Below are positions 15,752 through 34,985 of a stretch of 64,000 nt of DNA, piece after piece. A program made the translations under genes and the position numbers. Every line of letters begins with the position of its first letter. Position 1 is the stretch's first letter. The stretch comes from an uncultured delta proteobacterium. GTDB taxonomy: Bacteria > Myxococcota > UBA727 > VGSZ01. The DNA lies in the NCBI GenBank assembly GCA_963775425.1, contig CAVZJB010000011.1:352001-416000 (forward strand). Direction: 5' to 3'. Below the pieces are notes generated by a model that searched no databases, was not told where the DNA came from, and worked only from the letters and a program-made list of their open reading frames with translations.

Positions 15752-18700
15752 GTGCGCTCCCTCGCCGACGGACTCAGCGTCGCTCTCGACGTTCCGCGCT
15801 TCATCGCACGGCCCGCGCTGCGCGCCGCGTTGTGGCACGCGGTCTTCGTCGGCGCCGTCACCATCATCAAGAGCGGCACCAACGCGCTCTACCTCGCGCG
15901 CGAGGACCCCGCGCGCCTCCCGCTCCTGTACGTCGCCGTCGCCGTCGTCGTCCTCCTCGTCACCTCGGGGCTCGCCCGCCTCCTCGCGCGCCGCTCGCCC
16001 GCGCAGGTGCTCACCGTCGGCGTCATCGGCGCGGGCGTCGCCCTCATCGCAAGCACCGCCGCCGCCGCCGCCGGCCTCCCGGGCGCGGAGGCCGTCGTCT
16101 ACGTCGTCGGCGAGGCCGCCGCGACCACGGGCAGCGTCCTGTTCTGGGCCCGCGTGATGGACGCCTTCGCCGCGCGCGACAGCAAGAAGGTGGTCGGCCT
16201 CGTCGGCGCCGGCGGCATGTCGGGCGCCGCCGTCGGCGGCCTGCTCATTCGGCTCATCGCCGACAGCGCCGGCGTCGTCATCCCCATGATCGCCTCCGCC
16301 GTCGCCTTCATGGTCGCGCTGCCGCTCCTGCGCGCCCTCCGTTCGCGCGGGGAGCGCGTCGGCAGGAGCGACGCCGAGCTGCTCCCCGCGGTGCGCTACC
16401 TCGGCGGCCGCGGCTACCCCATCGCCGTCGCCACCCTCGTCGTGCTCCTCGCCGCCACCGGCGCCGCCACCGACTTCGTCTTCCGCACGGCCGTTGCGCA
16501 CGCGCACACGGAGACGGAGATGGCCGCGCTCTTCGGCACGCTGAACGCGGTGGTCGGCGTCGTCGTCGTGTTCTTCCAGGTGTCTTTGACCTCGCGCCTG
16601 CTGTCGCGCGTGGGCGTGTTCTCTTTCGTCGCCATCGTCCCCACGCTCCTCGTCGCCACCAGCGTCCTCGCCGTCGCGCTCCCCGGCGGCGGCTTCTCCA
16701 TCATCGTCGTCATGAAGGGCATCGAGATGGCCGGCGCCTACTCGCTCAACCAGACGGCGGTGTCGCTCCTGTACAACCCCATGCCCGGCGAGCTGCGCTC
16801 GCAGGTGCGCACGCTCATCGACGGCGCCATCAAGAAATCCGGGGCCGCCGGCGCCGGCCTCGTGCTCGGCGCCCTCGCCGCGTTCTTGCCGCTCCTCGTG
16901 GGGAGCTGGCTCGTGGCGCTGGCGGCCGGCGCCACGCTCGTGCTCTTGCCCATCCTGCGCACGCGCTACCTCGACGCCCTCGACGACAAGCTGGGCCAGC
17001 GAAAGAAGATCCGCCCGGGCCCCATCGATCCCTCGGACAAGGTCACGCGCACCGCGTTGCGCACCCTCCTGCTGGCGGACGACCCGGAGCGCGTGCTCGG
17101 CGCGCTCGGCGCGCTGGGGCCGCGCTACACGCTCACGACGGAGGAGATCGCGACGCTCGTCGAGAACAAGGACGAGCGCGTGCGCACCGCAGCGCTCAAG
17201 CACGTGCCGGTGGCGCCCGACGATGTGCTCACCGCGCGCCTCCTGCAGATCGCCAAGGCGCACGGGCCGCGACGTCCGCGGGCGGAGGCGGTGCGCGCCC
17301 TCGCGCGGCTGCAGGGCAAGAACGCGCCCGCGGTGATCGGGCAGTTCCTCGACGACGACGAGCCCGGCGTGGTGGCCGCCGCCCTCGAGGTGTCCTTGAA
17401 GGCGGCGCGCGACGCGGAGATCGAGCTCATCAAGGCGGGCGTCACCAACGACGACGAGGACACCATGACGGGCGCCCTCACCGCCAACATGCGCGCGCGC
17501 CACAAGCTCCAGAGCATCCTCGTCGACCTCCCCCAGCGCTCGCTCGCCTGGCGCCGCGAGATCGCTCGGCTCCTGGGGGCGCTCGACGACGCCCGCTACG
17601 ACGGCTTCCTCGCGCAGCTCATCGGCGACGACGACGCCACGGTTCGCTCGCTGGCCATCGACGCCGCCGGCCGCGAGCGCCACGCCGCCCACGTGCCCCT
17701 GCTCATCTCGCACCTCGGCGATCGGCGCGTGCGCGTGCAGGCGGCCCGCGCCCTCGCGCGCTACGGCGAGGACGGGGTGGAGCCGCTCAAGGCCGCCCTC
17801 GACGACCGCCAGCTCCCCTTGATGGTGCGCATCCACGTCCCCCGCGTCCTCGAGGCCGTGGGGACGGAGAGCGCGGCGCGCGCGCTCCTGTTTTCGAACC
17901 CCAGGGACGACGCCTACCTGCAGCAACGCATCGCGGCGTCGCTGGTGGGCATCGTCGCGTACGAGCCGGGGACCCCGGTGGACAAGAAGCGCACCGACGA
18001 GGCTATCGGGCGCCGCCTGGTGGCCTCCGCCGCGTACGACGACGCCCGCCGCGAGCTGGAGGCGGACCCGACGGCGGGGCTGTCGCTGCTGAAGCACGCG
18101 GTGCGCGATCGCTGTGCGCAAAACCTCAAGATCGCGCTCGACCTGCTCGGCATCCACCGCGGGCTCGCGCGCATGCAGACGGTGCACGCGGGGCTCGTGA
18201 GCGGCAAGGAGAGCGCCCGCCACGACGCCATCGAGCTGCTCGACGCGGCGCTCTCCGGGGACCCCCTGCGGGAAGATTTCCTGTCGCTTTTGGAGCGGAC
18301 CCCGAGGACGACCACGATCGATGACGCGCGCAAACGCGCGCTGAAGCTCTGTCGGTCCAAGGACCCCTTGCTGCGCGGCATCGCGCGCCGCACCATGCGC
18401 TTCCTCGGCGACGACTCGCCGGAGGTCTCGGGCACGTCGCCCGCCGTCGGCCCCGGCGCCGTGGAGCTCGAAGGAGAGGACATGCCCGAAAACCTCGTCG
18501 AGCGCCTGTTTCTCCTCGAGCACGTCGATCTGTTCGAGGGGCTGTCCACCGACGACCTCTCCGCCATCGCCTCCATCGCCACCGAGCACGCGCTGCCGGC
18601 GGGCTCGCCCCTGTACCAGGAGGGCGAGAGCGGCACCCAGCTCTACGTGATCATCGAGGGCGACGTGGAGCTGACGCGGGCGGGCCGCCACGTCATGAAG

Positions 18701-18952
18701 CTCCGGGCCGGCGAGAGCGCCGGGCAGGTGAGCTTCCTCGATCGCGGGCCGCGGCCGGTGACGGCGCGGGTGTCGGACAAGGCGCCGGCGCGGTTCCTCG
18801 TCGTCGAGCGCGACATCTTCATGGACCTGCTCGCCGACCGTCCGGGCTTGATGCACGCGTTCTTCGGGGTGCTCGCGGCCCGGCTGCGGACGCTCATCGA
18901 GCGCGACGCGGCGGACCCCGCGGGCCGGCGGCGGGTGCCTACATCCGTATAG
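15752..18952 (+). CDS. Npt1/Npt2 (TLC)-type nucleotide transporter fused to HEAT repeats and a cNMP-binding domain
   Basis: About 12 TM helices with K..E....YSLNQTAVSLLYNPMP..LRSQVRTLIDG, HEAT-like repeats, LFEGLS...YQEGESGTQLYVIIEGDV...GQVSFLDRGPRPVTA. Confidence 0.85.
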   Translation: MRSLADGLSVALDVPRFIARPALRAALWHAVFVGAVTIIKSGTNALYLAREDPARLPLLYVAVAVVVLLVTSGLARLLARRSPAQVLTVGVIGAGVALIASTAAAAAGLPGAEAVVYVVGEAAATTGSVLFWARVMDAFAARDSKKVVGLVGAGGMSGAAVGGLLIRLIADSAGVVIPMIASAVAFMVALPLLRALRSRGERVGRSDAELLPAVRYLGGRGYPIAVATLVVLLAATGAATDFVFRTAVAHAHTETEMAALFGTLNAVVGVVVVFFQVSLTSRLLSRVGVFSFVAIVPTLLVATSVLAVALPGGGFSIIVVMKGIEMAGAYSLNQTAVSLLYNPMPGELRSQVRTLIDGAIKKSGAAGAGLVLGALAAFLPLLVGSWLVALAAGATLVLLPILRTRYLDALDDKLGQRKKIRPGPIDPSDKVTRTALRTLLLADDPERVLGALGALGPRYTLTTEEIATLVENKDERVRTAALKHVPVAPDDVLTARLLQIAKAHGPRRPRAEAVRALARLQGKNAPAVIGQFLDDDEPGVVAAALEVSLKAARDAEIELIKAGVTNDDEDTMTGALTANMRARHKLQSILVDLPQRSLAWRREIARLLGALDDARYDGFLAQLIGDDDATVRSLAIDAAGRERHAAHVPLLISHLGDRRVRVQAARALARYGEDGVEPLKAALDDRQLPLMVRIHVPRVLEAVGTESAARALLFSNPRDDAYLQQRIAASLVGIVAYEPGTPVDKKRTDEAIGRRLVASAAYDDARRELEADPTAGLSLLKHAVRDRCAQNLKIALDLLGIHRGLARMQTVHAGLVSGKESARHDAIELLDAALSGDPLREDFLSLLERTPRTTTIDDARKRALKLCRSKDPLLRGIARRTMRFLGDDSPEVSGTSPAVGPGAVELEGEDMPENLVERLFLLEHVDLFEGLSTDDLSAIASIATEHALPAGSPLYQEGESGTQLYVIIEGDVELTRAGRHVMKLRAGESAGQVSFLDRGPRPVTARVSDKAPARFLVVERDIFMDLLADRPGLMHAFFGVLAARLRTLIERDAADPAGRRRVPTSV

Positions 18953-25614: not shown

Positions 25615-25760
25615 GCTGATCAGCGACCGGAGGGAGCGGCCGCGCTGATCAGCGACCGGAGGGAGCGGCCGCGCTGATCAGCGACCGGAGGGAGCCGGCC
25701 GCGCTGATCAGCGACCGGAGGGAGCGGCCGCGCTGATCAGCGACCGGAGGCAGCGGCCGC
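25615..25760. repeat. 29-bp tandem direct repeat x5 (no spacers)
   Basis: gctgatcagcgaccggagggagcggccgc; unit 3 has a 1-bp insertion, unit 5 has one mismatch and overlaps the 3' end of the C26 gene. Confidence 0.95.
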
Positions 25761-26480
25761 CACGAGGGCGGCGTAGATGGCGCGCTGGGCGGGCTCGCGC
25801 ATGGCCTCGGGGTGCCACTGGACCGCGACGAAGAACCGCAGCTTCGGATCCTCGAAGGCCTCGACGACGCCGTCGGCGGCGCGCGCGCTCTCGACGAGGC
25901 CGGGCGCGAGCGCCTTCACGGCCTGGTGGTGCGTGCTGTTGACCGGCAGCCGGTCGGGCCCGCCGGCGGCGGAGACCAGCGCGCGCAGGCGCGTGCCGGG
26001 GCTGAGCGCGACGTCGTGGCAGGGCTCGTCCTTCCGGCCCTTCTGGCTGTGACCGGCGTTGTCCGGCTTTTGCGCGTCGAGGTCCTGCCACAGCGTGCCG
26101 CCGCGGACGACGTTCATGAGCTGCATGCCGCCGCACACGCCGAGCACCGGGATGCCCTTGTTCTCCGCGCGCACGAGCAGGCCCCACTCGAGCGCGGTGC
26201 GCTCCGGCAGGAGCTTGCCGAGCGCTTCGTGCGGCTGCTCGCCGTAGTGCGCCGGGTCGACGTCGAAGTCGCCGCCCGGGAGCACGAGCGCGTCCGCGAG
26301 CGCCACGAGCTGATCGAGCGCGCCCGCGTCGTCGACGATGGGCGGGATGAGCGGGAGCCCGCCGGCCTCGAGGATGGCGTCGGCGTACTCGCGCTGGCTC
26401 ACCAGACGCGGCTGCGGACCGCGCCTGGTCTCCTGGGTCTCGAGGTCGGGCGGCAGAAGGACGACGGGGCGGCGGCTCAC
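25737..26480 (-). CDS. Gamma-glutamyl-gamma-aminobutyrate hydrolase family (peptidase C26, PuuD-like)
   Basis: LPGGDFDVDP, PVLGVCGGMQLMNV..GGTL.QD, VNSTHHQAV, VQWHPE. Confidence 0.92.
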   Translation of the reverse strand: MSRRPVVLLPPDLETQETRRGPQPRLVSQREYADAILEAGGLPLIPPIVDDAGALDQLVALADALVLPGGDFDVDPAHYGEQPHEALGKLLPERTALEWGLLVRAENKGIPVLGVCGGMQLMNVVRGGTLWQDLDAQKPDNAGHSQKGRKDEPCHDVALSPGTRLRALVSAAGGPDRLPVNSTHHQAVKALAPGLVESARAADGVVEAFEDPKLRFFVAVQWHPEAMREPAQRAIYAALVAAAASGR

Positions 26481-26580: not shown

Positions 26581-29500
26581 ATGTTCCGCTCCGTGGGCGT
26601 GAAGGCGGCGTTCCTCTTCGGGAGCGGCTTTTGCGCGCTCGTGTACCAGACGATGTGGTTGCGCGCGCTGCGCACGGTGTTCGGGGCGTCCACGCCGGCG
26701 AACGCGGCGGTGCTGTCGGTGCTCCTGGGCGCCTTCGCCGTCGGCAGCGCCGTCTTCGCGCGCCGCGCGGAGCGAACGTCGCAGCCGCTCAGGCTCTATG
26801 CCCGCCTCGAGATGGGCGTCGCGGCCTCCGCCGCGCTCTCCCCGTTCCTCGTCGATGGCGTGCGCGCCGTGTATCTGGCGCTCGGCGGCTCCACCACGCT
26901 CGGCGCCGGCGCCACCGCCGCGCGGCTCGTGCTCTCCGTCTTCGCCCTCGGCGTGCCCGCCGCGCTCATGGGCGGGACGTTCCCGGCCATGGCCCGCGCC
27001 GCCGGCGACGCCGCGCGGGAGACGCGCAAGCCGCTCGCGCTCTTTTTCGGCGCGAGCACGCTCGGGGCCGTCGTGGGCGCGGCCGCATCGACCTTCGCGC
27101 TCCTCGAGATCTATGGCGTGCGCCGCTCGATCTGGATCGCGTGCGCCGCCAACGCGCTCGTCGCCGTCGTCGCGCGCAACCGCGCCAGATCGTCACGGCC
27201 CGTCGCCGCGATGCCGCGCCCCGAGGGAGGCGCCCCGCGGGCGCGGCGGCTCTTCGTCCTCGTGGCGGCGTTCCTCACGGGCCTCTCGTTCCTCCTGCTC
27301 GAGCTCGTCTGGTACCGCTTGAGCGCGCCGCTCCTTGGCGGCTCCGCGTACACCTACGGCATCGTCGTCCTGCTCGCGCTCTTCGGTGTCGGCGCCGGCG
27401 GCCTCGCCTTCGCGTTCTTCGGTCCGCGCCGGCCGACGCCCGCGGGCTTCGCCGTCACCTGCGCGCTCGAGGCCGCGCTGGCCCTCGTCCCCTACGCGCT
27501 CGGCGACGACCTCGCGCGGCTCGCGTACTTCTTGCGTGCGCTCGCGAGCCCGGCGCTGTCCTCCATGGTCGCCGGCCAGGCCGTGCTCGCCGCCATCCTC
27601 GTGGTGCCGCCGGCCCTCGTCGCAGGGTGGCAGTTCCCGTCGCTGCTCTCCCTCGCGGGGGACGGCATCGAGGGCGCCGCCGTCGACAGCGGCGACGTCT
27701 ACGCCAGCAACACCGCCGGCTCGCTCCTCGGCGCCCTCGCCGGCGGGCTCGGGCTGTTGCCGCTCCTGTCGGCGCCCGGCGCGTGGAAGCTCGCGGCGCT
27801 CCTCCTCGTCGGCGCCGGTCTGTTCGCGGCCACGCGCCCGCGCGTTTCGTCGCCCGCTGAGCGCGCGCGCGTGGTCGCGTTCGCCGCGTTGGCGCTGGTG
27901 ACGACGTCGTTGGCGTTCGCGACCGGGCCCACCGCGCTGTGGCGGCAGTCCGGTGTCGGCGCCGGCCGCGCGCACCTGTGGGCCGAGACGTGGAACGACC
28001 TGCACGCGCTCACGTACGACGCGCGCCGCTTGACCGACCAGCGGGAAGGCCTGGAAGCAGGGCTCGGCTTTCGCACCATGGCCACGCACGGCGAGGCGCT
28101 CCTCGTGAACGGCGCGTCCGACGGCGCCACGTTCGGCGACGAGGGCACGCACGTGGGCCTCGGCCTGGTGCCCGCGCTCATCCATGGCGCGCCCAAGCGC
28201 GCCCTCGTCCTGGGGCTCGGCACGGGGCAGACGGCGGGGTGGTTGGCGGCCGTGCCGACCATGGAGCGCGTCGACGTCGCCGAGGTCGAGCCCGCGCTGC
28301 TCGACTTCGCCGCGCGCACCGCGCTCACCAACAAGGACGTGATGCACGACCGCAAGGTGAACATCGTGGTCGCCGATGGCCGCGAGGCGTTGGCGACGTC
28401 GAAGGGCGGCTACGACCTCATCGTGAGCGCGCCCTCGAGCGCGCCCCGCGCAGGCCTCGCCGGATTGTCCGCGCTCGAGCTCTACCAGACGGCGCGCGGA
28501 AAGCTCGCGCCGGGGGGCATCTTCGCGCAGTGGATGCCGGCGGATGCGGTCGACCTGGCCACGATGGAGACGGTGCTGGCGACGTTGTCGGCGGTGTTTC
28601 CCGACGTCACCATCTTCCGCCTCGGGCCCGGCGACGTCTTGTTGCTCGGCCGCACCTCCAAGGCGCCCCTCGACGTGCCGCGCCTGCGCGTGACGCTCGC
28701 GCGCGAGCCGTATCGTTTCTTCGTCGAGCACATGTTGTGGCAGACCGACGTCGAGGGCCTGCTGTCGCGCGTCTGCGGCAACGACGCGTTCGTGCACCGC
28801 CTCGCGGCGCGCGCGGGGGGCATGAGCACCGACAATCGGCCCGCGCTCGACAACGGCGTCCGCCGGAGCCTCGCCGACGCGTTCGACGAGATGCGCACGC
28901 AGAGCCGCCTGCTCGGCGAGGACCTGCCCGCGCTCAGCGAGCCCGTGGACCGCGCCGCCGTCGACCGGCAGGCGGGGCGCGTCTACACCGCGGAGGGCTC
29001 GCCGGCGCCGCAGGGCGTGGGCGATCCCGTCGAGCGCGCGTGGGCCGCCAGGCAATACGCGAGGGCGGCGGCGCTCGCCGCGACGCGGCCGGCACACGAC
29101 AGCGTCGGCGCGCTCATCCGCGCCCACGCCGGCGCCGTCGGCGGGGGCCGCCCCGCGGCCGGCGACCTCGACGCGCTCGTCGCCGCCGGCTTCGCCACCG
29201 ACGTCGCCTTCATCCGCGTCGACGCCGCCGTCACCGACGGCGACGGCGCGCACCTGCCCGCGCTCGTCGACGCGGCGGTGGCGGCGCTCGCGCGCGATCC
29301 GTGGGTGAACCAGGTGATCCTCGCGAGCGTCCTCGAACGGGTGCCGCGCGCGGCCATGTCACCGGAGCAAGCCCTCGCCGTGGCGCGGTCCCTCTCGACG
29401 CCGCTGCCCGGCAAGGCCGCCTTCGTCGCCCGCGTGACGTGCGTCCACGAGCTGCTCATGCGTGCGCCCGCGTCGATGCCCGGCTGGTGCGCCGGCGTCT

Positions 29501-29664
29501 ACGGCTCCATCGAGCCGGACCCGCTGTGGACGGAGTCGTGGCTGCGAGGCCGCGCCGCCTGCTACAGCACCCACGACGCCGCGCGCGTCGGTGGCGCGCG
29601 CGCCGACCTCGCCGCGTTCCTCGCGCACCAGGCGCCGACGCTGAAAGACGCCCTGGCACCTTGA
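26581..29664 (+). CDS. Fused multi-TM / spermidine synthase-like protein
   Basis: SGFCALVYQTMW, LMGGTFP, YASNTAGSLLG membrane region; ALVLGLGTGQT, VDVAEVEP, ADGRE, LAPGGIFAQW SAM-binding domain. Confidence 0.88.
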   Translation: MFRSVGVKAAFLFGSGFCALVYQTMWLRALRTVFGASTPANAAVLSVLLGAFAVGSAVFARRAERTSQPLRLYARLEMGVAASAALSPFLVDGVRAVYLALGGSTTLGAGATAARLVLSVFALGVPAALMGGTFPAMARAAGDAARETRKPLALFFGASTLGAVVGAAASTFALLEIYGVRRSIWIACAANALVAVVARNRARSSRPVAAMPRPEGGAPRARRLFVLVAAFLTGLSFLLLELVWYRLSAPLLGGSAYTYGIVVLLALFGVGAGGLAFAFFGPRRPTPAGFAVTCALEAALALVPYALGDDLARLAYFLRALASPALSSMVAGQAVLAAILVVPPALVAGWQFPSLLSLAGDGIEGAAVDSGDVYASNTAGSLLGALAGGLGLLPLLSAPGAWKLAALLLVGAGLFAATRPRVSSPAERARVVAFAALALVTTSLAFATGPTALWRQSGVGAGRAHLWAETWNDLHALTYDARRLTDQREGLEAGLGFRTMATHGEALLVNGASDGATFGDEGTHVGLGLVPALIHGAPKRALVLGLGTGQTAGWLAAVPTMERVDVAEVEPALLDFAARTALTNKDVMHDRKVNIVVADGREALATSKGGYDLIVSAPSSAPRAGLAGLSALELYQTARGKLAPGGIFAQWMPADAVDLATMETVLATLSAVFPDVTIFRLGPGDVLLLGRTSKAPLDVPRLRVTLAREPYRFFVEHMLWQTDVEGLLSRVCGNDAFVHRLAARAGGMSTDNRPALDNGVRRSLADAFDEMRTQSRLLGEDLPALSEPVDRAAVDRQAGRVYTAEGSPAPQGVGDPVERAWAARQYARAAALAATRPAHDSVGALIRAHAGAVGGGRPAAGDLDALVAAGFATDVAFIRVDAAVTDGDGAHLPALVDAAVAALARDPWVNQVILASVLERVPRAAMSPEQALAVARSLSTPLPGKAAFVARVTCVHELLMRAPASMPGWCAGVYGSIEPDPLWTESWLRGRAACYSTHDAARVGGARADLAAFLAHQAPTLKDALAP

Positions 29665-29703: not shown

Positions 29704-30978
29704 TCAGCGCGGGGCGGCGGCGAACGCGAGCGACATCCGGCGGCACATGAAGCGCGGGTCGTCGACGTCGAGGGCGCTGACGGCGGCGACGAGCCGGGCG
29801 CCGGCGCGGGCGCAGTCGGCGACGCGCCCCGGTGTCGTCACGCCACCGATGGCGACGACGGGGAGCGGTGCGAGCTTCGTTCGCCGCGCCAGCGCTTCGA
29901 GGCCGACCACGGGCGCGTGCCCCGACTTGGTCGGGGACGCGAACACCGGCCCGACCGCGACGAGGTCGGCGCCGCCGTCGGCGCACGCGTCGAGCAGCTC
30001 GGGCTCGGTGTGGCTCGAGGCGCCGACGAGCGCGTCCGCGCCGACGATGCGGCGGGCGAGCTTGGGCGGCATATCGGTCTGGCCGACGTGCACGCCGTCG
30101 GCGTCGGCGGCGACGCACAGATCGGGGCGATCGTTCACGATGACGGGGACGCCGTACGGCCGGCACCGCGCCAGGAGCGGCTCGAGCAACGCGAGCACGT
30201 CGCGGTCGGCGAAGCCCTTGGCGCGCAACTGCACCATCGCCACGCCCCCCTCGACGAGGGCCGCCGCGCGCCGCTCGAGCTCGTCGAGGAGGGCTTGCGC
30301 CTCGACGCGATGCACGGGGCTCGACAACAACGGCACGGCGCCGTGCGCCGTCGACGACGGCTCCGCGTGCGGCGCCACCACGGCGTACAGGCCCGCCGGC
30401 ACGCGAGCGGCGGGCGGCGCGAGCGACGCGGGGAGCGGCTTCTTCTGCGCGCGGCACGCGGCGCGCATCCCGTCGTCGAGCGCCTGGACCAGGCCGGGCG
30501 TCGACGCGCCGCGCGCGAGAGGGACCACGTGCGCGAGCGTCTCTTCGACGTACGCGTCGAGCTTGTCGCGGCTCGGCGCGAGGTGGAGCTCGCCGAGGTT
30601 GTGCAGGCGATCGCACACCTTCACCAGGCGCAGCGCGTCGTCGGCGCCGTCGGCGAGGCGCGCGTAGTACGCCGCGGTGGCCTCGGGCCCCTTGCCGGTC
30701 TTGGTCAACAGCTCCACGCGCCGCGTGACCTCGGCGCCGAACCGCGCGCGCAGCTCGGCCGCGTCGATGCCGACCTCGTTGTCCTCGAGGACGTCGTGCA
30801 AGAGCGCCGCCGCCCGTGTGACGTCGTCGACGGCGATGCCGCACGCGGGCCCGACGTCGTCGATGAGCGTGCGCACGGCCTCGGGGTGGCGGATGTACGG
30901 CGCCCCGTGTCGTCGCGTCTGGCCGTGGTGCGCTTCGTACGCGATGGCGCGCGCTCGCTCGAGAGGGATGGCCTCCAT
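29704..30978 (-). CDS. thiE: Fusion: RelA/SpoT-type HD hydrolase (Mesh1/SAH-like) plus thiamine-phosphate synthase
   Basis: AHHGQTRRHGAPYIRHP, ALLHDVLED, VKVCDRLHNL; then VQLRAK, IVNDRPD, GVHVGQTD, GASSH, GPVFASPTK, VAIGG. Confidence 0.88.
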   Translation of the reverse strand: MEAIPLERARAIAYEAHHGQTRRHGAPYIRHPEAVRTLIDDVGPACGIAVDDVTRAAALLHDVLEDNEVGIDAAELRARFGAEVTRRVELLTKTGKGPEATAAYYARLADGADDALRLVKVCDRLHNLGELHLAPSRDKLDAYVEETLAHVVPLARGASTPGLVQALDDGMRAACRAQKKPLPASLAPPAARVPAGLYAVVAPHAEPSSTAHGAVPLLSSPVHRVEAQALLDELERRAAALVEGGVAMVQLRAKGFADRDVLALLEPLLARCRPYGVPVIVNDRPDLCVAADADGVHVGQTDMPPKLARRIVGADALVGASSHTEPELLDACADGGADLVAVGPVFASPTKSGHAPVVGLEALARRTKLAPLPVVAIGGVTTPGRVADCARAGARLVAAVSALDVDDPRFMCRRMSLAFAAAPR

Positions 30979-30981
30979 GTG

Positions 30982-31728
30982 TCAGCCGCCGCCGATGAGT
31001 CGGCGCGCGTTGCGCTCGTGCGCGGCGCGGAACGCTTCGAGCGCGCGGATGTCCCGGAACCCGTCGACGCCGAGGGTGCGCCAACCGAAGAAGTCCGCGG
31101 GGTCCTGGAAGGAGACGCCGAGGTTCTGCGCGAAGAGGCGGTCGGCGTCGGAGTGGTCGTCGCCGCGCTCGCCGTCGGGCTCGATCTCCCTCCTGGTGTA
31201 CGCGGAGTCGCCCACCATGAACGAGTGCTTCTTGTCGATGACCGCGTGGTCGCCGAAGGTCTCCTTGAGGAAGGTCTCCAGAGACAGCGCCATCCCCACC
31301 GCGGGCTTTCGGTGAGAGTCCTTCCTCTCGGCGAAGTCGACCCAATGGACGTCGCCGCCGCCCTTGCGGATGAGCTCCACGGTCTCTTCGAGCGCGGCGT
31401 CGGCGTCCTCGAGGGAGATCCTGCCGGCGGAGACGCCGGCCTGGTTGGAGACGATGGCGATGAGGTAGCCCTCGCGGCTCAGGCGCCCGAGGGTGCGCGC
31501 GACGTTCGGCAGGAGCGCGACGTCGCCGGGGCCGTCGGCGGTGGCGCCGCCCGAGAGCGCGACGCGCAGCGTGGCGTCGGCGTCGAAGAAGGCGACCTTC
31601 ACGGGCCCCTTCCCGGGCGCCAGGTAGGTGGCGGCGAGCCTGCGACGGGCGAGGCCGTCGACGGCGCCCGCGGACGGGCGGGTCGGGACGTCGGCGACGA
31701 CGTGGGGTGCCAGGCGATCGATGCGCAT
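30982..31728 (-). CDS. HAD-IIIA hydrolase, polynucleotide 3'-phosphatase (PNK3P)/GmhB-like
   Basis: FFDADATL, IVSNQAG, RKPAVGM, SFMVGDSAY, HSDADRLFAQNLG..F..P..FF. Confidence 0.85.
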   Translation of the reverse strand: MRIDRLAPHVVADVPTRPSAGAVDGLARRRLAATYLAPGKGPVKVAFFDADATLRVALSGGATADGPGDVALLPNVARTLGRLSREGYLIAIVSNQAGVSAGRISLEDADAALEETVELIRKGGGDVHWVDFAERKDSHRKPAVGMALSLETFLKETFGDHAVIDKKHSFMVGDSAYTRREIEPDGERGDDHSDADRLFAQNLGVSFQDPADFFGWRTLGVDGFRDIRALEAFRAAHERNARRLIGGG

Positions 31729-31833
31729 GCGAGGTCTCCGCACAGGACGATAGCCCATCCCCGCGGGCCGCCGGCGCTCACCGGGCGCAGGCGAGGTTTG
31801 GCACCGCCCCACGTCGTGGCTAAGGTCCCGCCC

Positions 31834-33717
31834 GTGGACCGCCGGCCGCTCCTGGTGTCGCTCATCGCCCCCGCCGTCAGCGTCGTCGTCGCCGTCGTCG
31901 TCGCCGTCGTCGCCGTCGGTGTCGCCGGCGGCTGCACGAGCGCGCGCTCGACGCCGGCGGCATCGACGCCCCCGGCCGTCGGGACGGCGCCCCCGCAGGC
32001 AGCGCCGTCGACGCGGCCCACGTCCCGCGCGCCCGCCGTCGCCCCGCCCGAGACGCACATCTTCGCGAGGCTCGACGAGCCCAAGGCCGCACGCATCCTG
32101 TGGACCGCCAGCGTGCAGGGGTACGTCGAGCCCTGCGGCTGCACGGGCGATCCCCTCGGCGGCGTCGCCCGCCTCGCCGCCGCCGTGAAGGACGCCAAGC
32201 GCGCGACGGATGGTCGCGTGCTCCTCCTCGACGCCGGCGACCTCCTCTTCGAGCACGAGAGCGACAACGCGCCGCTCGACGCATGCCAGGCCGGCGCCCG
32301 CGACGACCTCCTCGTCGACACCTACGGCAAGCTCGGCCTCGCGGCCACGGTGCTCGGCCCCCTCGACGACGTGCGCGGCGCCGAATTCCGCGACGCGCGG
32401 CTCCACAAGGCCGGCATCGTCACCGTCGGCGTCGACACGCCGCGCGCGCTCGTCGCCGGCGCCGCGCGCGCCGTGAGCGTCGTGCGCGTGCTCGGCGACG
32501 TCGGCGTCGGCGTCACCGCGTTTCGCGTCGACGCGCCCGGGGGCGCCTCCGACGGGACGACCGCCGTCGTGCAGCGCGCGCACGACGCGCTCGCCGCCGA
32601 GGTGCGACGCCTCGCGACGCAAGCGGGCACCAGCGCCGCGCGACACCTCGACGTCATCGTGGTGCTCGCGCAGGCGCCGCGCGCGATCACCAAGCGCGTG
32701 GTCGCGGGCATCCCGGGCATCGACATCGTCATCCAGGGCAGGGCCCCCGGCGAGGTGCCGCTGCCACCGGAGGCGCTGGGAGGCGGCGCCGTGCTCGTCG
32801 CGGCGGGGATGCAGGCGCAATACGTCGGCGTCCTCGAGCTCCACCTCGCGGGGCGCACGGCGGGCGCGCCGCTCGCCCTCGACGACGCCGAGGCCAAGGC
32901 CGACGCCGACAAGAAGGTGCTCCGCGTGCGCATCAAGGAGCTGAAGAGGCAGGTCGACGACGCCGACGGCGCGCGCAAGGAGTTCCTCGCCGGGCGCCTC
33001 GCGACGGCCGAGGAGCAGATGAAGGCGCTCGACGCAAACGGGCCGTCGACAACGGGGCCACGGGTGAAGGTGCGGGCGCTGCCCCTGGCGCGCGGCTTCC
33101 CCGAAGATCCCGGCGTGAAGGCCGCCCTCGACGCCTACACCGCGCGCATCCCGTCGCTGGTGACGTCGTGCGAAGCCGGGGCCACGTGCGTGCCCGCGCC
33201 GAAGGACGCGGCGACGTGGGTGGGGGCCAAGGCGTGCAAGGGCTGCCACGAAGAGCAGTACGCGTTCTGGAAGAAGCAGCTCGTGAAGCTGCCGGGGAAG
33301 GACGACAACGGCCGCCCCATCACGCGCACCGAGGGCCACGTCCACGCGTGGGACACGCTCGTCGCCGACGGCAAGCAGAAGGACCGCAGTTGCGTCGGCT
33401 GTCACAGCGTCGGCTTCGACGCGCCGGGCGGCCCCTGTAAGACCGGCGACGTCGTCGCCCGCGGCCTCGCCGCCGTACAATGCGAGAGCTGCCACGGCCC
33501 CGGCAGCTTTCACGTGGAGAGCAGCGCGCCCGAGGACATCGTCGGCAAGCCCGACGAAGCCCGCTGCCGCACCTGCCACCGCGTCCCGCACATCCCCACC
33601 ACGGAGAGCTTCGTGATGACAGACCGCTTGAAGCTCATCCTCGGCCCGGGGCACGGCGAGAAGCGCTTCCGTGCGCTCGAGGCGGCCACCGCCGGCGGCG
33701 CGGAGGGCACGCGATGA
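31834..33717 (+). CDS. Lipoprotein: UshA/5'-nucleotidase-like domain plus tetraheme cytochrome c (c554-like)
   Basis: VAGGC lipobox-like; GYVEPCGC...LGGVAR...LLDAGDLLF; four CxxCH motifs (CKGCH, CVGCH, CESCH, CRTCH). Confidence 0.85.
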   Translation: MDRRPLLVSLIAPAVSVVVAVVVAVVAVGVAGGCTSARSTPAASTPPAVGTAPPQAAPSTRPTSRAPAVAPPETHIFARLDEPKAARILWTASVQGYVEPCGCTGDPLGGVARLAAAVKDAKRATDGRVLLLDAGDLLFEHESDNAPLDACQAGARDDLLVDTYGKLGLAATVLGPLDDVRGAEFRDARLHKAGIVTVGVDTPRALVAGAARAVSVVRVLGDVGVGVTAFRVDAPGGASDGTTAVVQRAHDALAAEVRRLATQAGTSAARHLDVIVVLAQAPRAITKRVVAGIPGIDIVIQGRAPGEVPLPPEALGGGAVLVAAGMQAQYVGVLELHLAGRTAGAPLALDDAEAKADADKKVLRVRIKELKRQVDDADGARKEFLAGRLATAEEQMKALDANGPSTTGPRVKVRALPLARGFPEDPGVKAALDAYTARIPSLVTSCEAGATCVPAPKDAATWVGAKACKGCHEEQYAFWKKQLVKLPGKDDNGRPITRTEGHVHAWDTLVADGKQKDRSCVGCHSVGFDAPGGPCKTGDVVARGLAAVQCESCHGPGSFHVESSAPEDIVGKPDEARCRTCHRVPHIPTTESFVMTDRLKLILGPGHGEKRFRALEAATAGGAEGTR

Positions 33718-34985
33718 CCGAGACCCTGCTGTCCGTCGACGAGGCGCGCGCGCGCATCCTCGCCGCGCTGTCCCCGCTGTCGCAGGAGACCGTGCCCGTC
33801 GCCGACGCCGGCGGCCGCGTGCTCGCGGAGGCGTTGCACAGCCGGCGCGACCTGCCCGCGTTCGACAACTCCGCCATGGACGGCGTCGGCGTTCGCGTCG
33901 CCGACGTCGCGAGCGCGTCGCCGTCGTCGCCGGTGCGCCTCGCGCTGTCCGGGTCGTCGCTGGCGGGCGCGGCGCCGCCCGGGGAAGGAGCGGGCGGGCT
34001 CGCGGCGGGGAGCGCCGCGCGCATCATGACGGGCGCCCCGGTCCCCGCCGGCGTCGAGGCGGTGGTGATGCGCGAGCAGACCTCGGAGGCGGAGGTCGCC
34101 GCCGGGTTCGTCTCGGTGCTCGCGCCGGCGGCGCCGGGCCAGAACGTGCGGCGCCGCGGCGAGGACGTGAGGGCCGGCGACGTCGTCGGCCGCCCCGGCG
34201 ACGTCGTCACGCCGGCGCGGCTGAACCTGCTCCTCGCGGCGGGCCTCACGAGCGCGCGCGCGGTGCGCCGCCCGTCCGTCGCGGTGCTCGCGTCCGGTGA
34301 CGAGCTCGTCGAGGTCGGTGAGCCCCTCGGCCCCGGCGACGTCGTCAACAGCAACGCGCACGCCGTCGCCGCCGCCGCGCGCACGGCGGGCTGCGACGCG
34401 CACCTGCTCGGGATCGCGCGCGACACGCTCGAAGACCACGTGCGCATGCTCGAGGGCGCGTCGCGCTTCGACGTCGTGTTGACCATCGGCGGCGTCTCCA
34501 TGGGCACGCACGACTTCGTGCGCCCCGCGCTCGAGAGGCTCGGCGTCACGCTCGACCTGTGGCGCGTGGCGATGAAGCCGGGCAAGCCCGTGGCGTTCGG
34601 CGCGTTCCCCGACGGCCGCGTGGTCTTCGGGCTGCCGGGCAACCCGGTGAGCGCCATGGTGAGCTTCGAGCTCTTCGTGCGTCCTGCGCTCGCGCGCCTG
34701 CAGGGGAGGGCCGCCACGGTGCGGCCGTTGTGGCCCGCGATCCTCGTCGACAGCGACGTGAAGAAGAGGCCCGGCCTCGAGCATTGGGCCCGCGGCAGCG
34801 CCCGTCTCGTCGACGGCAAGCTCCACGTGCGCGTCCTCGAGGGGCAGGGCTCGCATCGAATCTCGGTGCTCGCCCGCGCCAACGCCCTGGTGCGTTTCCC
34901 CAGGGACGGCGCCGGCGGTGTCGCCGGCGACGCCGTCGACGTGCTCCTCCTCGACGACCCGCTCACCGCTGCGGACCTGACGTAG
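33714..34985 (+). CDS. moeA: Molybdopterin molybdotransferase MoeA
   Basis: PAFDNSAMDG, IMTGAPVP, SGDEL, GGVSMG..DF, MKPGKP, GLPGNPVSA; ATGA overlap with upstream gene. Confidence 0.95.
   Translation: MTETLLSVDEARARILAALSPLSQETVPVADAGGRVLAEALHSRRDLPAFDNSAMDGVGVRVADVASASPSSPVRLALSGSSLAGAAPPGEGAGGLAAGSAARIMTGAPVPAGVEAVVMREQTSEAEVAAGFVSVLAPAAPGQNVRRRGEDVRAGDVVGRPGDVVTPARLNLLLAAGLTSARAVRRPSVAVLASGDELVEVGEPLGPGDVVNSNAHAVAAAARTAGCDAHLLGIARDTLEDHVRMLEGASRFDVVLTIGGVSMGTHDFVRPALERLGVTLDLWRVAMKPGKPVAFGAFPDGRVVFGLPGNPVSAMVSFELFVRPALARLQGRAATVRPLWPAILVDSDVKKRPGLEHWARGSARLVDGKLHVRVLEGQGSHRISVLARANALVRFPRDGAGGVAGDAVDVLLLDDPLTAADLT

Follow-up and report, generated by a model that had tools for sequence, protein, structure and literature searches.

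To our knowledge, hydrolase domains of the RelA/SpoT homologue (RSH) type occur in two settings, the long Rel/SpoT enzymes and small alarmone hydrolases that stand alone. We describe here an RSH-type HD domain that is joined, in a single gene, to thiamine-phosphate synthase (ThiE). The gene lies in a stretch of 64,000 nucleotides (the window) of contig CAVZJB010000011.1, from an uncultured delta proteobacterium of the Myxococcota (assembly GCA_963775425.1). The hydrolase motifs of RSH enzymes are given in the part of Bisiak et al. (2022; PMC9293644) available to us as an Arg that stacks on the base (HD1), a His (HD2), a His-Asp pair (HD3), a Glu-Asp pair for nucleophilic attack (HD4), an Asp with an Arg or Lys (HD5) and an Asn (HD6). 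For ThiE, the closest described arrangement is ThiD2-ThiE. In the available part of PMC12345177, which cites Thamm et al. (2017), ThiD2 is a hydroxymethylpyrimidine (HMP)-phosphate kinase that refuses HMP and toxic analogues.

The fusion is encoded by one open reading frame (ORF) on the minus strand, at 29704..30978. It starts with ATG, encodes 424 amino acids and has zero internal stops. The G+C content of the window DNA is about 74%. The gene and its parts are as follows.

29704..30978, minus strand: the whole HD-ThiE fusion gene, 424 codons plus a stop codon at 29704-29706 (ORF call, domain scans, AlphaFold2 model)
30421..30978, minus strand: RSH-type HD hydrolase domain, N-terminal, residues ~1-186 (Pfam, alignment to T. 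thermophilus Rel 6s2t, Foldseek)
30520-30954, minus strand: Pfam HD_4 match, residues 9-153 (Pfam scan)
30304..30381, minus strand: insertion past the first barrel strand, residues 200-225 (alignment, AlphaFold2 model)
29707..30411, minus strand: ThiE barrel, C-terminal, residues ~190-424 (Pfam, NCBIfam, ThiE alignment, Foldseek)
29770-30288, minus strand: Pfam TMP-TENI match, residues 231-403 (Pfam scan)

The initial annotation, made from the sequence without database searches, had read both domains in one uninterrupted ORF, and the ORF check, Pfam and NCBIfam bear this out. HD_4 matches with 44 bits (cut-off 27.2, E 2.5e-11) and TMP-TENI with 166 bits (E 7e-49). The NCBIfam equivalog-domain model for thiE, TIGR00693, scores 154.7 bits against a cut-off of 145.1. 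The match to the spoT_relA subfamily model TIGR00691 is confined to the N-terminus. Pfam finds no synthetase (RelA_SpoT), TGS or ACT domain in the fusion, which is therefore not a long RSH. It is not a small alarmone hydrolase of the single-domain type either, since a 235-residue ThiE domain is attached in all 52 clusters of the protein family described below. Neither the fusion protein nor the rest of the genome matches the ThiD2 domain (PF17792). The model NF002727 covers only positions 159-333 of the fusion, with 153.7 bits against a cut-off of 335, which places the protein outside the ThiD2-ThiE (PRK02615) type. The insertion at residues 200-225 is longer in the window protein than in its relatives (alignment columns 286-326).

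The HD domain retains all six hydrolase motifs. In the HMMER alignment to T. thermophilus Rel, the equivalents of HD1 to HD6 are R22, H31, H61-D62, E65-D66, D123-R124 and N127. The motifs quoted in the initial annotation are all found, as H17..Q20.R22..G25.P27Y28..H31P32, H61D62..E65D66 and K120..D123R124.H126N127. Conservation was counted in 61 family members (P0001-P0052 and P0136-P0144). Eight core HD residues, which cover all six motifs, are identical in 57 of the 61, and the other four are N-terminally truncated. The base-stacking Arg of HD1 and the Asn of HD6 are present in every full-length member.

Comparisons with known structures place this domain close to the long enzymes. It scores 65 bits against T. 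thermophilus Rel, 51 bits against Mesh1 and 31-42 bits against bacterial small alarmone hydrolases. In the alignment, the loop that follows HD1 equals that of long RSHs in length. According to the available part of PMC9293644, bacterial and metazoan small alarmone hydrolases carry a loop insertion after HD1; the fusion does not. The likeness to Mesh1 proposed initially has to be adjusted, as the scores and the HD1 loop are nearer to the HD domain of long Rel/SpoT enzymes. The fusion HD is 31% identical to the HD domain of the genome's own long RSH, indicating that it is not a recent duplicate. No close stand-alone homologue of the HD domain was found; the best is 37% identical.

The ThiE half also appears complete. 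In an alignment with ThiE from B. subtilis, M. tuberculosis and P. furiosus, residues Q250, R252, K254, N282, D283, D302, S321, T350 and K351 of the fusion correspond to Q57, R59, K61, N92, D93, D112, S130, T158 and K159 of the B. subtilis enzyme. We take these to be the pyrophosphate-, Mg- and thiazole-phosphate-binding positions. They are kept in the window protein and in 60 of the 61 family members, as expected from the intact ThiE motifs reported initially, and the one exception is a Ser-to-Thr change.

The fusion is the only canonical ThiE that we recognize in its genome (8.26 Mb, 18 contigs, 94.55% complete). Two TMP-TENI genes are present, the fusion and a copy next to thiC. Together with thiG and thiC, this second copy is located about 110 kb from the fusion on the same contig. 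The genes thiD and thiL are elsewhere in the genome, thiL above its cut-off, and with thiC, thiG and thiD the rest of the thiamine pathway is present. A role of the HD domain as a thiamine phosphate phosphatase was considered and is unlikely because thiL is present above its cut-off.

G000:C11:492388-492990 (locus L002, 1432-2124), minus strand, outside the window: second TMP-TENI gene, 230 amino acids, immediately 3' of thiC, which is itself closely preceded by thiG

This paralogue scores 79.5 bits on the thiE model, below the cut-off of 145.1. In the alignment to ThiE, a His-Thr pair replaces the Asn-Asp Mg site, and the equivalent of D112 is missing. In all six genomes compared (G000, the window genome; G001; G028; G029; G033; G003), residues equivalent to Q250, N282-D283 and D302 are missing from the second copy, whereas the fusion or its orthologue has them. 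Its gene context was examined in the window genome only. Because the second copy is without the Mg-binding positions, the fusion stands as the single canonical ThiE of the clade. Judging by these residues, the second copy is probably not a ThiE but a TenI-like thiazole tautomerase. The earlier statement that the window holds no other thi gene agrees with a Pfam scan of 50 window ORFs of our own gene calling, which found none; three short called ORFs lie outside that scan. An RSH-type domain is therefore joined to a vitamin-biosynthesis enzyme of which the genome has only this one predicted-functional copy.

Structure prediction supports both assignments. An AlphaFold2 model of the whole fusion (ma1da88e083a2), run with an alignment of 38 relatives, has a mean predicted local distance difference test (pLDDT) score of 94.9 and a predicted TM (pTM) score of 0.93. 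It consists of an all-helical N-terminal domain to about residue 177 and a β/α barrel from residue 196. The sole weakly modelled stretch is the loop 207-212, with pLDDT below 50. Foldseek matches the N-terminal domain to T. thermophilus Rel (7ohg, E 8e-7; 6s2t) and to human Mesh1 (5vxa, E 1.6e-6; TM 0.76 on the target, 28% identity). The C-terminal domain matches the ThiE structures 3o15, 2tps, 1xi3 and 3o63, with E values of ~1e-11 to 1e-10 and TM 0.75-0.85 on the target. No solved structure among the Foldseek matches listed covers both domains. In this one monomer prediction, the two domains are predicted to be packed as one rigid body.

Homologues of the fusion form a well-defined family. 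A search of 5.8 billion proteins returned 239 matches at E<=0.001 from 8000 candidates scored, and 120 were listed. The top 52 clusters, with the query among them, align over almost their whole length at 35-63% identity. Domain profiles made from our own alignment find both domains in all 52, one of which (P0032) is a fragment on a 1-kb contig. A full-length profile was also compared with 1.84 billion representatives (50% clusters); 20 match end to end in a single stretch, and the matches below them are to ThiE only. In databases the relatives are named either ‘thiamine phosphate synthase’ or ‘HD domain-containing protein’, in bins labelled Deltaproteobacteria or Myxococcota. Since such names give one activity only, the second, predicted activity goes unnoticed.

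The order of the window genome is the whole of its class and is represented by 38 species genomes, in families f1 (11 genomes), f2 (2), f3 (1), f4 (21), f5 (2) and f6 (1). Family f1 comprises G000 and G028-G037. Both halves occur in one frame in eight other genomes: G028, G029, G031, G033, G034 and G035 in f1, and G001 and G002 in f2. Fragmented assemblies give, at E<=1e-30, the HD half only in G036 and the ThiE half only in G032 and G037. The order-wide genome search found no fusion match in G030 of f1. Matches in f3 and f6 are to ThiE only, and f4 (21 small genomes) and f5 (2 genomes) have no match to the fusion. Among 401 sampled Myxococcota genomes, 16 match at E<=1e-35; 11 of these belong to f1 and f2, and the other five match in the ThiE part only. 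Among the sampled genomes, the fusion is confined to two families of one Myxococcota order.

Two findings that, according to the initial annotation, would count against the fusion are not borne out in these relatives. No stop separates the domains, as both halves share one frame in the eight genomes and the 52 clusters. The fusion is not unique to this assembly, and in the main family neither domain appears inactive.

A quick maximum-likelihood tree was built from 121 ThiE domains. In it, a branch with a Shimodaira-Hasegawa-like approximate likelihood ratio test (SH-aLRT) support of 94 separates the 52 fusions and the HD-less proteins of G003 and G027 from 67 other ThiEs, many of which have an N-terminal ThiD2 domain. 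On this basis, the fusion may have a single origin. The tree does not fix the placement of the HD-less orthologues within the group, which could be basal or result from secondary loss. A generic RSH-motif search of genome contigs gave 80 loci; 79 are ordinary RSH genes and one (L010) is a true fusion. Independent HD_4 and ThiE fusions elsewhere were sought, and none is present among the best 150 of 72,777 profile matches. The two-stretch matches among those 150 are instead tandem ThiE-ThiE, double HD_4, ThiE-ThiF, ThiE-HAD, ThiE-ThiD, GNAT-ThiE and similar proteins.

ThiE appears to be a frequent fusion partner in general. Many proteins of ~400-460 amino acids have two tandem TMP-TENI domains (P0146, P0147, P0148, P0150, P0153, P0154, P0156 and others). 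Other partners seen are ThiF, a HAD hydrolase, a GNAT acetyltransferase, a DcpS_C/HIT-like domain and TenA-HAD-ThiD.

The genome has one synthetase (RelA_SpoT) domain, on another contig than the fusion, and two HD_4 domains, one in the long RSH and one in the fusion. The hydrolase motifs of the long RSH are intact. Exactly two HD_4 genes are present in the fusion-bearing relatives, compared with one in G003. In the window genome, the long RSH gene (contig C16, L003 ~1480-1500) shows a one-base frame change exactly at the hydrolase/synthetase junction. In four relatives the long RSH is one uninterrupted frame of 729-811 amino acids. The frame change may be an indel of the assembly; otherwise it is a recent lesion, which would split the enzyme into an HD-only part and a synthetase-TGS part.

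The safest statement from these motifs and alignments is that the protein is predicted to be bifunctional, with a housekeeping ThiE as its C-terminal domain and an active RSH-type, metal-dependent pyrophosphohydrolase as its N-terminal domain. Our best explanation, which we put forward tentatively, is more specific: beside its housekeeping ThiE, the protein would have a Mn-dependent RSH hydrolase that acts most likely on (p)ppGpp- or (p)ppApp-like nucleotides. The C-terminal half would convert HMP diphosphate (HMP-PP) and thiazole phosphate to thiamine phosphate and pyrophosphate (PPi). The N-terminal half would remove, with Mn, the 3'-diphosphate from (p)ppGpp or (p)ppApp-like nucleotides. 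The cell would then have two alarmone hydrolases, the fusion and its single long Rel/SpoT enzyme. If the two domains form one rigid body as predicted, the state of one may influence the other. An alarmone-thiamine link, or a clean-up of thiamine-related pyrophosphates, had been suggested initially from the fusion alone. If the alarmone substrate is correct, the fusion would provide direct protein-level evidence connecting the stringent response and thiamine supply.

The residues around the nucleotide site are compatible with such a substrate, with two peculiarities. The position of RelSeq S46 is a His (H24) in 56 of the 57 sequences that cover it, and the position of RelSeq T151 is a Glu (E130) in 60 of the 61 members. 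Both substitutions are family-specific. In the RelSeq-pppGpp complex, as described in the available part of PMC13299517, the guanine is held mainly by main-chain atoms of the HD1 loop and of N148/T151, and the 5'-phosphates are in solvent. Since these contacts are mostly made by the main chain, H24 and E130 do not exclude a purine nucleotide. They could tune the specificity.

Several points weigh against alarmone hydrolysis. A nearly invariant His and Glu at these base-proximal positions could mean another substrate. With a long RSH that has an intact hydrolase and only a single synthetase domain, the cell does not obviously need another hydrolase. No thi or stringent-response gene is located beside the fusion in the window genome or in the relatives examined. 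The nearest ThiE relatives have ThiD2 in the same N-terminal slot, which by analogy favors a substrate from the thiamine pathway. Lastly, a degenerate HD-like domain is combined with an intact ThiE in a few relatives described below, suggesting that hydrolase activity is dispensable in some lineages.

The main alternative, though an unlikely one, is that the HD domain hydrolyzes a pyrophosphate of the thiamine pathway or a product of its damage, and serves as a flux valve or for proofreading beside ThiE. Candidate substrates would be HMP-PP or a toxic analogue diphosphate, thiamine di- or triphosphate, and adenosine thiamine triphosphate. H24 and E130 beside the base pocket and the hydrolase-competent long RSH agree with it. 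So does the ThiD2 slot, because fusions there tend to act on the pyrimidine substrate of ThiE. Nudix hydrolases acting on HMP-PP and on oxy- and oxo-thiamine diphosphates are reported in the available part of PMC5389931, and NCBIfam contains a Nudix-plus-TMP-TENI model, NF006530. However, the parts of PMC9293644 and PMC13299517 available to us mention no RSH-type HD domain acting on a non-nucleotide pyrophosphate. The base-stacking Arg and the HD6 Asn are kept in all full-length members, which also counts against it. As ThiE uses HMP-PP, its hydrolysis in the same protein would be futile in the absence of regulation, and the lack of adjacent thi genes speaks against the pathway as well. If this alternative is correct, it would add a new substrate class to the RSH fold and a new step of damage or flux control.

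A few relatives have one degenerate half. P0145, named ‘HD domain-containing protein’ at NCBI, keeps all HD motifs and has the ThiE changes Q250L, R252Q, K254R, N282D, D283G, T350D and K351T. The opposite is found in P0151, P0160, P0165 and P0277, which keep every ThiE position and have lost the HD3/4 and HD5/6 motifs from the N-terminal domain. This type is rare, with four clusters found. When the N-terminal domain is taken alone, only that of P0151 gives a significant match to the HD profile, of 26.6 bits against its second half. Those of P0160, P0165 and P0277 score no better than ThiD2 controls and are linked to the family only via their similarity to P0151. For the whole-chain model of P0151, the structure matches listed are filled by TIM barrels on residues 175-390.

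Separately, P0152 (502 amino acids, on an 8.9-kb metagenome contig) has a fusion-family HD domain (243 bits to our own HD profile) followed by Cytochrome_C554 and not by ThiE. It may be a chimeric assembly or a rearrangement, as the cytochrome gene is the usual divergent neighbor of the fusion.

The variants bear on another explanation, which we regard as improbable. The HD domain would mainly be a ligand sensor, in which binding of a (p)ppGpp-type nucleotide switches ThiE allosterically, and hydrolysis would be secondary and reset the switch. The predicted rigidity of the two-domain body (pTM 0.93) is consistent with this. The architecture also outlives the loss of either half, as in P0151 (dead HD, intact ThiE) and P0145 (intact HD, degenerate ThiE). 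RelA retains an inactive HD domain, which provides a parallel. What a pure sensor does not account for is the conservation of the catalytic Glu-Asp and of all metal ligands, and not merely of the binding residues.

The distribution of thiamine pyrophosphate (TPP) riboswitches was examined in this context. None (RF00059) was detected in the 11 f1 genomes, and none at E<=1 around thiG-thiC or the fusion; some other control mechanism would be needed there, in agreement with a sensor. Riboswitches were detected in one of two f2 genomes, the one f3 genome, eight of 21 f4 genomes and one of two f5 genomes, and not in the one f6 genome. These counts come from related genomes, which are not independent samples. 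The fusion does not go strictly with a lack of riboswitches, because the fusion-bearing G001 (f2) has one directly upstream of thiC. The fusion is thus no simple riboswitch substitute. In addition, G027 (f6), which has no HD domain, is also without a detectable riboswitch.

A more elaborate form of alarmone control, which we likewise consider doubtful, is a switch in which both (p)ppGpp/(p)ppApp occupancy and hydrolysis at the N-terminal domain gate the cell's only ThiE. In that case, the protein itself would make cofactor production track the stringent response, in a lineage without a detectable TPP riboswitch at its thiamine genes. The relatives with one dead half would be pseudo-enzyme descendants of the switch.

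That the fusion is an artefact, be it an error of assembly, a frameshift or two genes wrongly called as one, is extremely improbable and is refuted by the relatives. The one-nucleotide frame change in the long RSH gene shows that indel errors are possible in this genome, but 52 clusters, drawn from numerous independent assemblies and sources, have both domains in one protein. The full-length profile is matched in a single stretch by 20 representatives at 50% identity, the frame is shared in eight other genomes, and the best stand-alone HD homologue is only 37% identical.

The genes around the fusion in the window are listed below.

25737..26480, minus strand: Peptidase_C26 / class-I glutamine-amidotransferase-like gene (Pfam, synteny)
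26581-29664, plus strand: gene for a 1027-residue protein with a spermine/spermidine-synthase-like domain in mid-protein
30982..31728, minus strand: PNK3P-type HAD 3'-phosphatase gene, upstream of the fusion (PNK3P, 88.7 bits)
31816-33717, plus strand: Cytochrome_C554-like lipoprotein gene, conserved divergent neighbor
33714-34985, plus strand: moeA, conserved divergent neighbor; the pair spans 31816..34985

The stop codon of the PNK3P gene is 3 nt before the ATG of the fusion, so the two are probably co-transcribed here. PNK3P is absent beside the fusion in five relatives. It occurs in only two of the 38 genomes of the order, and in G031 it is on another contig. Given this rarity, the adjacency is treated as incidental, and the gene looks like a recent insertion. 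PNK3P was rejected as a functional partner, as it touches the fusion in the window genome only.

The conserved arrangement is seen in G028, G029, G001 and G033. In these genomes moeA and the cytochrome-c554-like gene are divergent, and are followed by the fusion and the Peptidase_C26 gene, with no moaA and no PNK3P. The Peptidase_C26 gene is directly downstream of the fusion on the same strand, with gaps of 9, -4, -4 and 20 nt, respectively. In the window, the two are separated by the gene for the 1027-residue protein on the opposite strand. Because they are adjacent in the relatives, this gene represents another lineage-specific insertion. G003 (f3) has the same synteny, including the adjacent Peptidase_C26 gene, but its ThiE has a short helical N-terminal extension and no HD domain. 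The ThiE of G027 has no HD domain either.

Several signaling genes were also observed in the region. A HEAT-repeat protein of ~1040-1070 amino acids with a C-terminal cyclic-nucleotide-binding domain is encoded at 15752-18952 on the plus strand of the window and at locus L104 (1316-4429). The gene is within ~11 kb of the fusion in the window, and is near the fusion in G001. The window also contains three Ser/Thr kinase genes and a 7TMR-DISM adenylate/guanylate cyclase gene.

Compared with known systems, the HD half most resembles that of the long RSHs (Rel/SpoT; T. thermophilus Rel 6s2t/7ohg, RelSeq 1vj7), in its best score of 65 bits, the six motifs, the length of the HD1 loop and the helical fold. 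Unlike these enzymes, the fusion has a ThiE barrel after the HD domain in place of synthetase, TGS and ACT domains, and His and Glu replace S46 and T151. The small alarmone hydrolases (Mesh1, RelH, PaSAH) share an RSH hydrolase domain without a synthetase; they are single-domain proteins, and the fusion scores 31-51 bits to their structures. The C-terminal half is similar to canonical ThiE (B. subtilis 2tps/3o15, M. tuberculosis 3o63, P. furiosus 1xi3), as it passes TIGR00693, forms a TIM barrel and keeps all positions checked. In contrast to canonical ThiE, it is preceded by a catalytic-type domain of 190 residues and is associated with neither a thi operon nor a TPP riboswitch.

ThiD2-ThiE proteins (PRK02615 type), found in cyanobacteria, planctomycetes and others, are the nearest ThiE relatives outside the order and carry an accessory enzyme at the same N-terminal position. 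Their N-terminal domain is a ThiD2 HMP-phosphate kinase of ~124 residues and not an HD hydrolase. The Nudix thiamine hydrolases (E. coli HMP-PP pyrophosphatase and the oxy-/oxo-thiamine diphosphatases, as far as described in the available part of PMC5389931) and the NF006530 proteins are similar in that a pyrophosphate-cleaving hydrolase is associated with or fused to a ThiE-type domain; they differ in their unrelated hydrolase fold, the domain order and the clade. The initial annotation knew no characterized example of this architecture, and our literature searches combining alarmone hydrolase, HD or ppGpp with ThiE or thiamine likewise found no description. The main texts, supplements aside, of Atkinson et al. 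(2011; PMC3153485) and Jimmy et al. (2020; PMC7229694) do not mention a ThiE fusion. As both domains belong to well-known families, the fusion is a new architecture and not a new kind of system.

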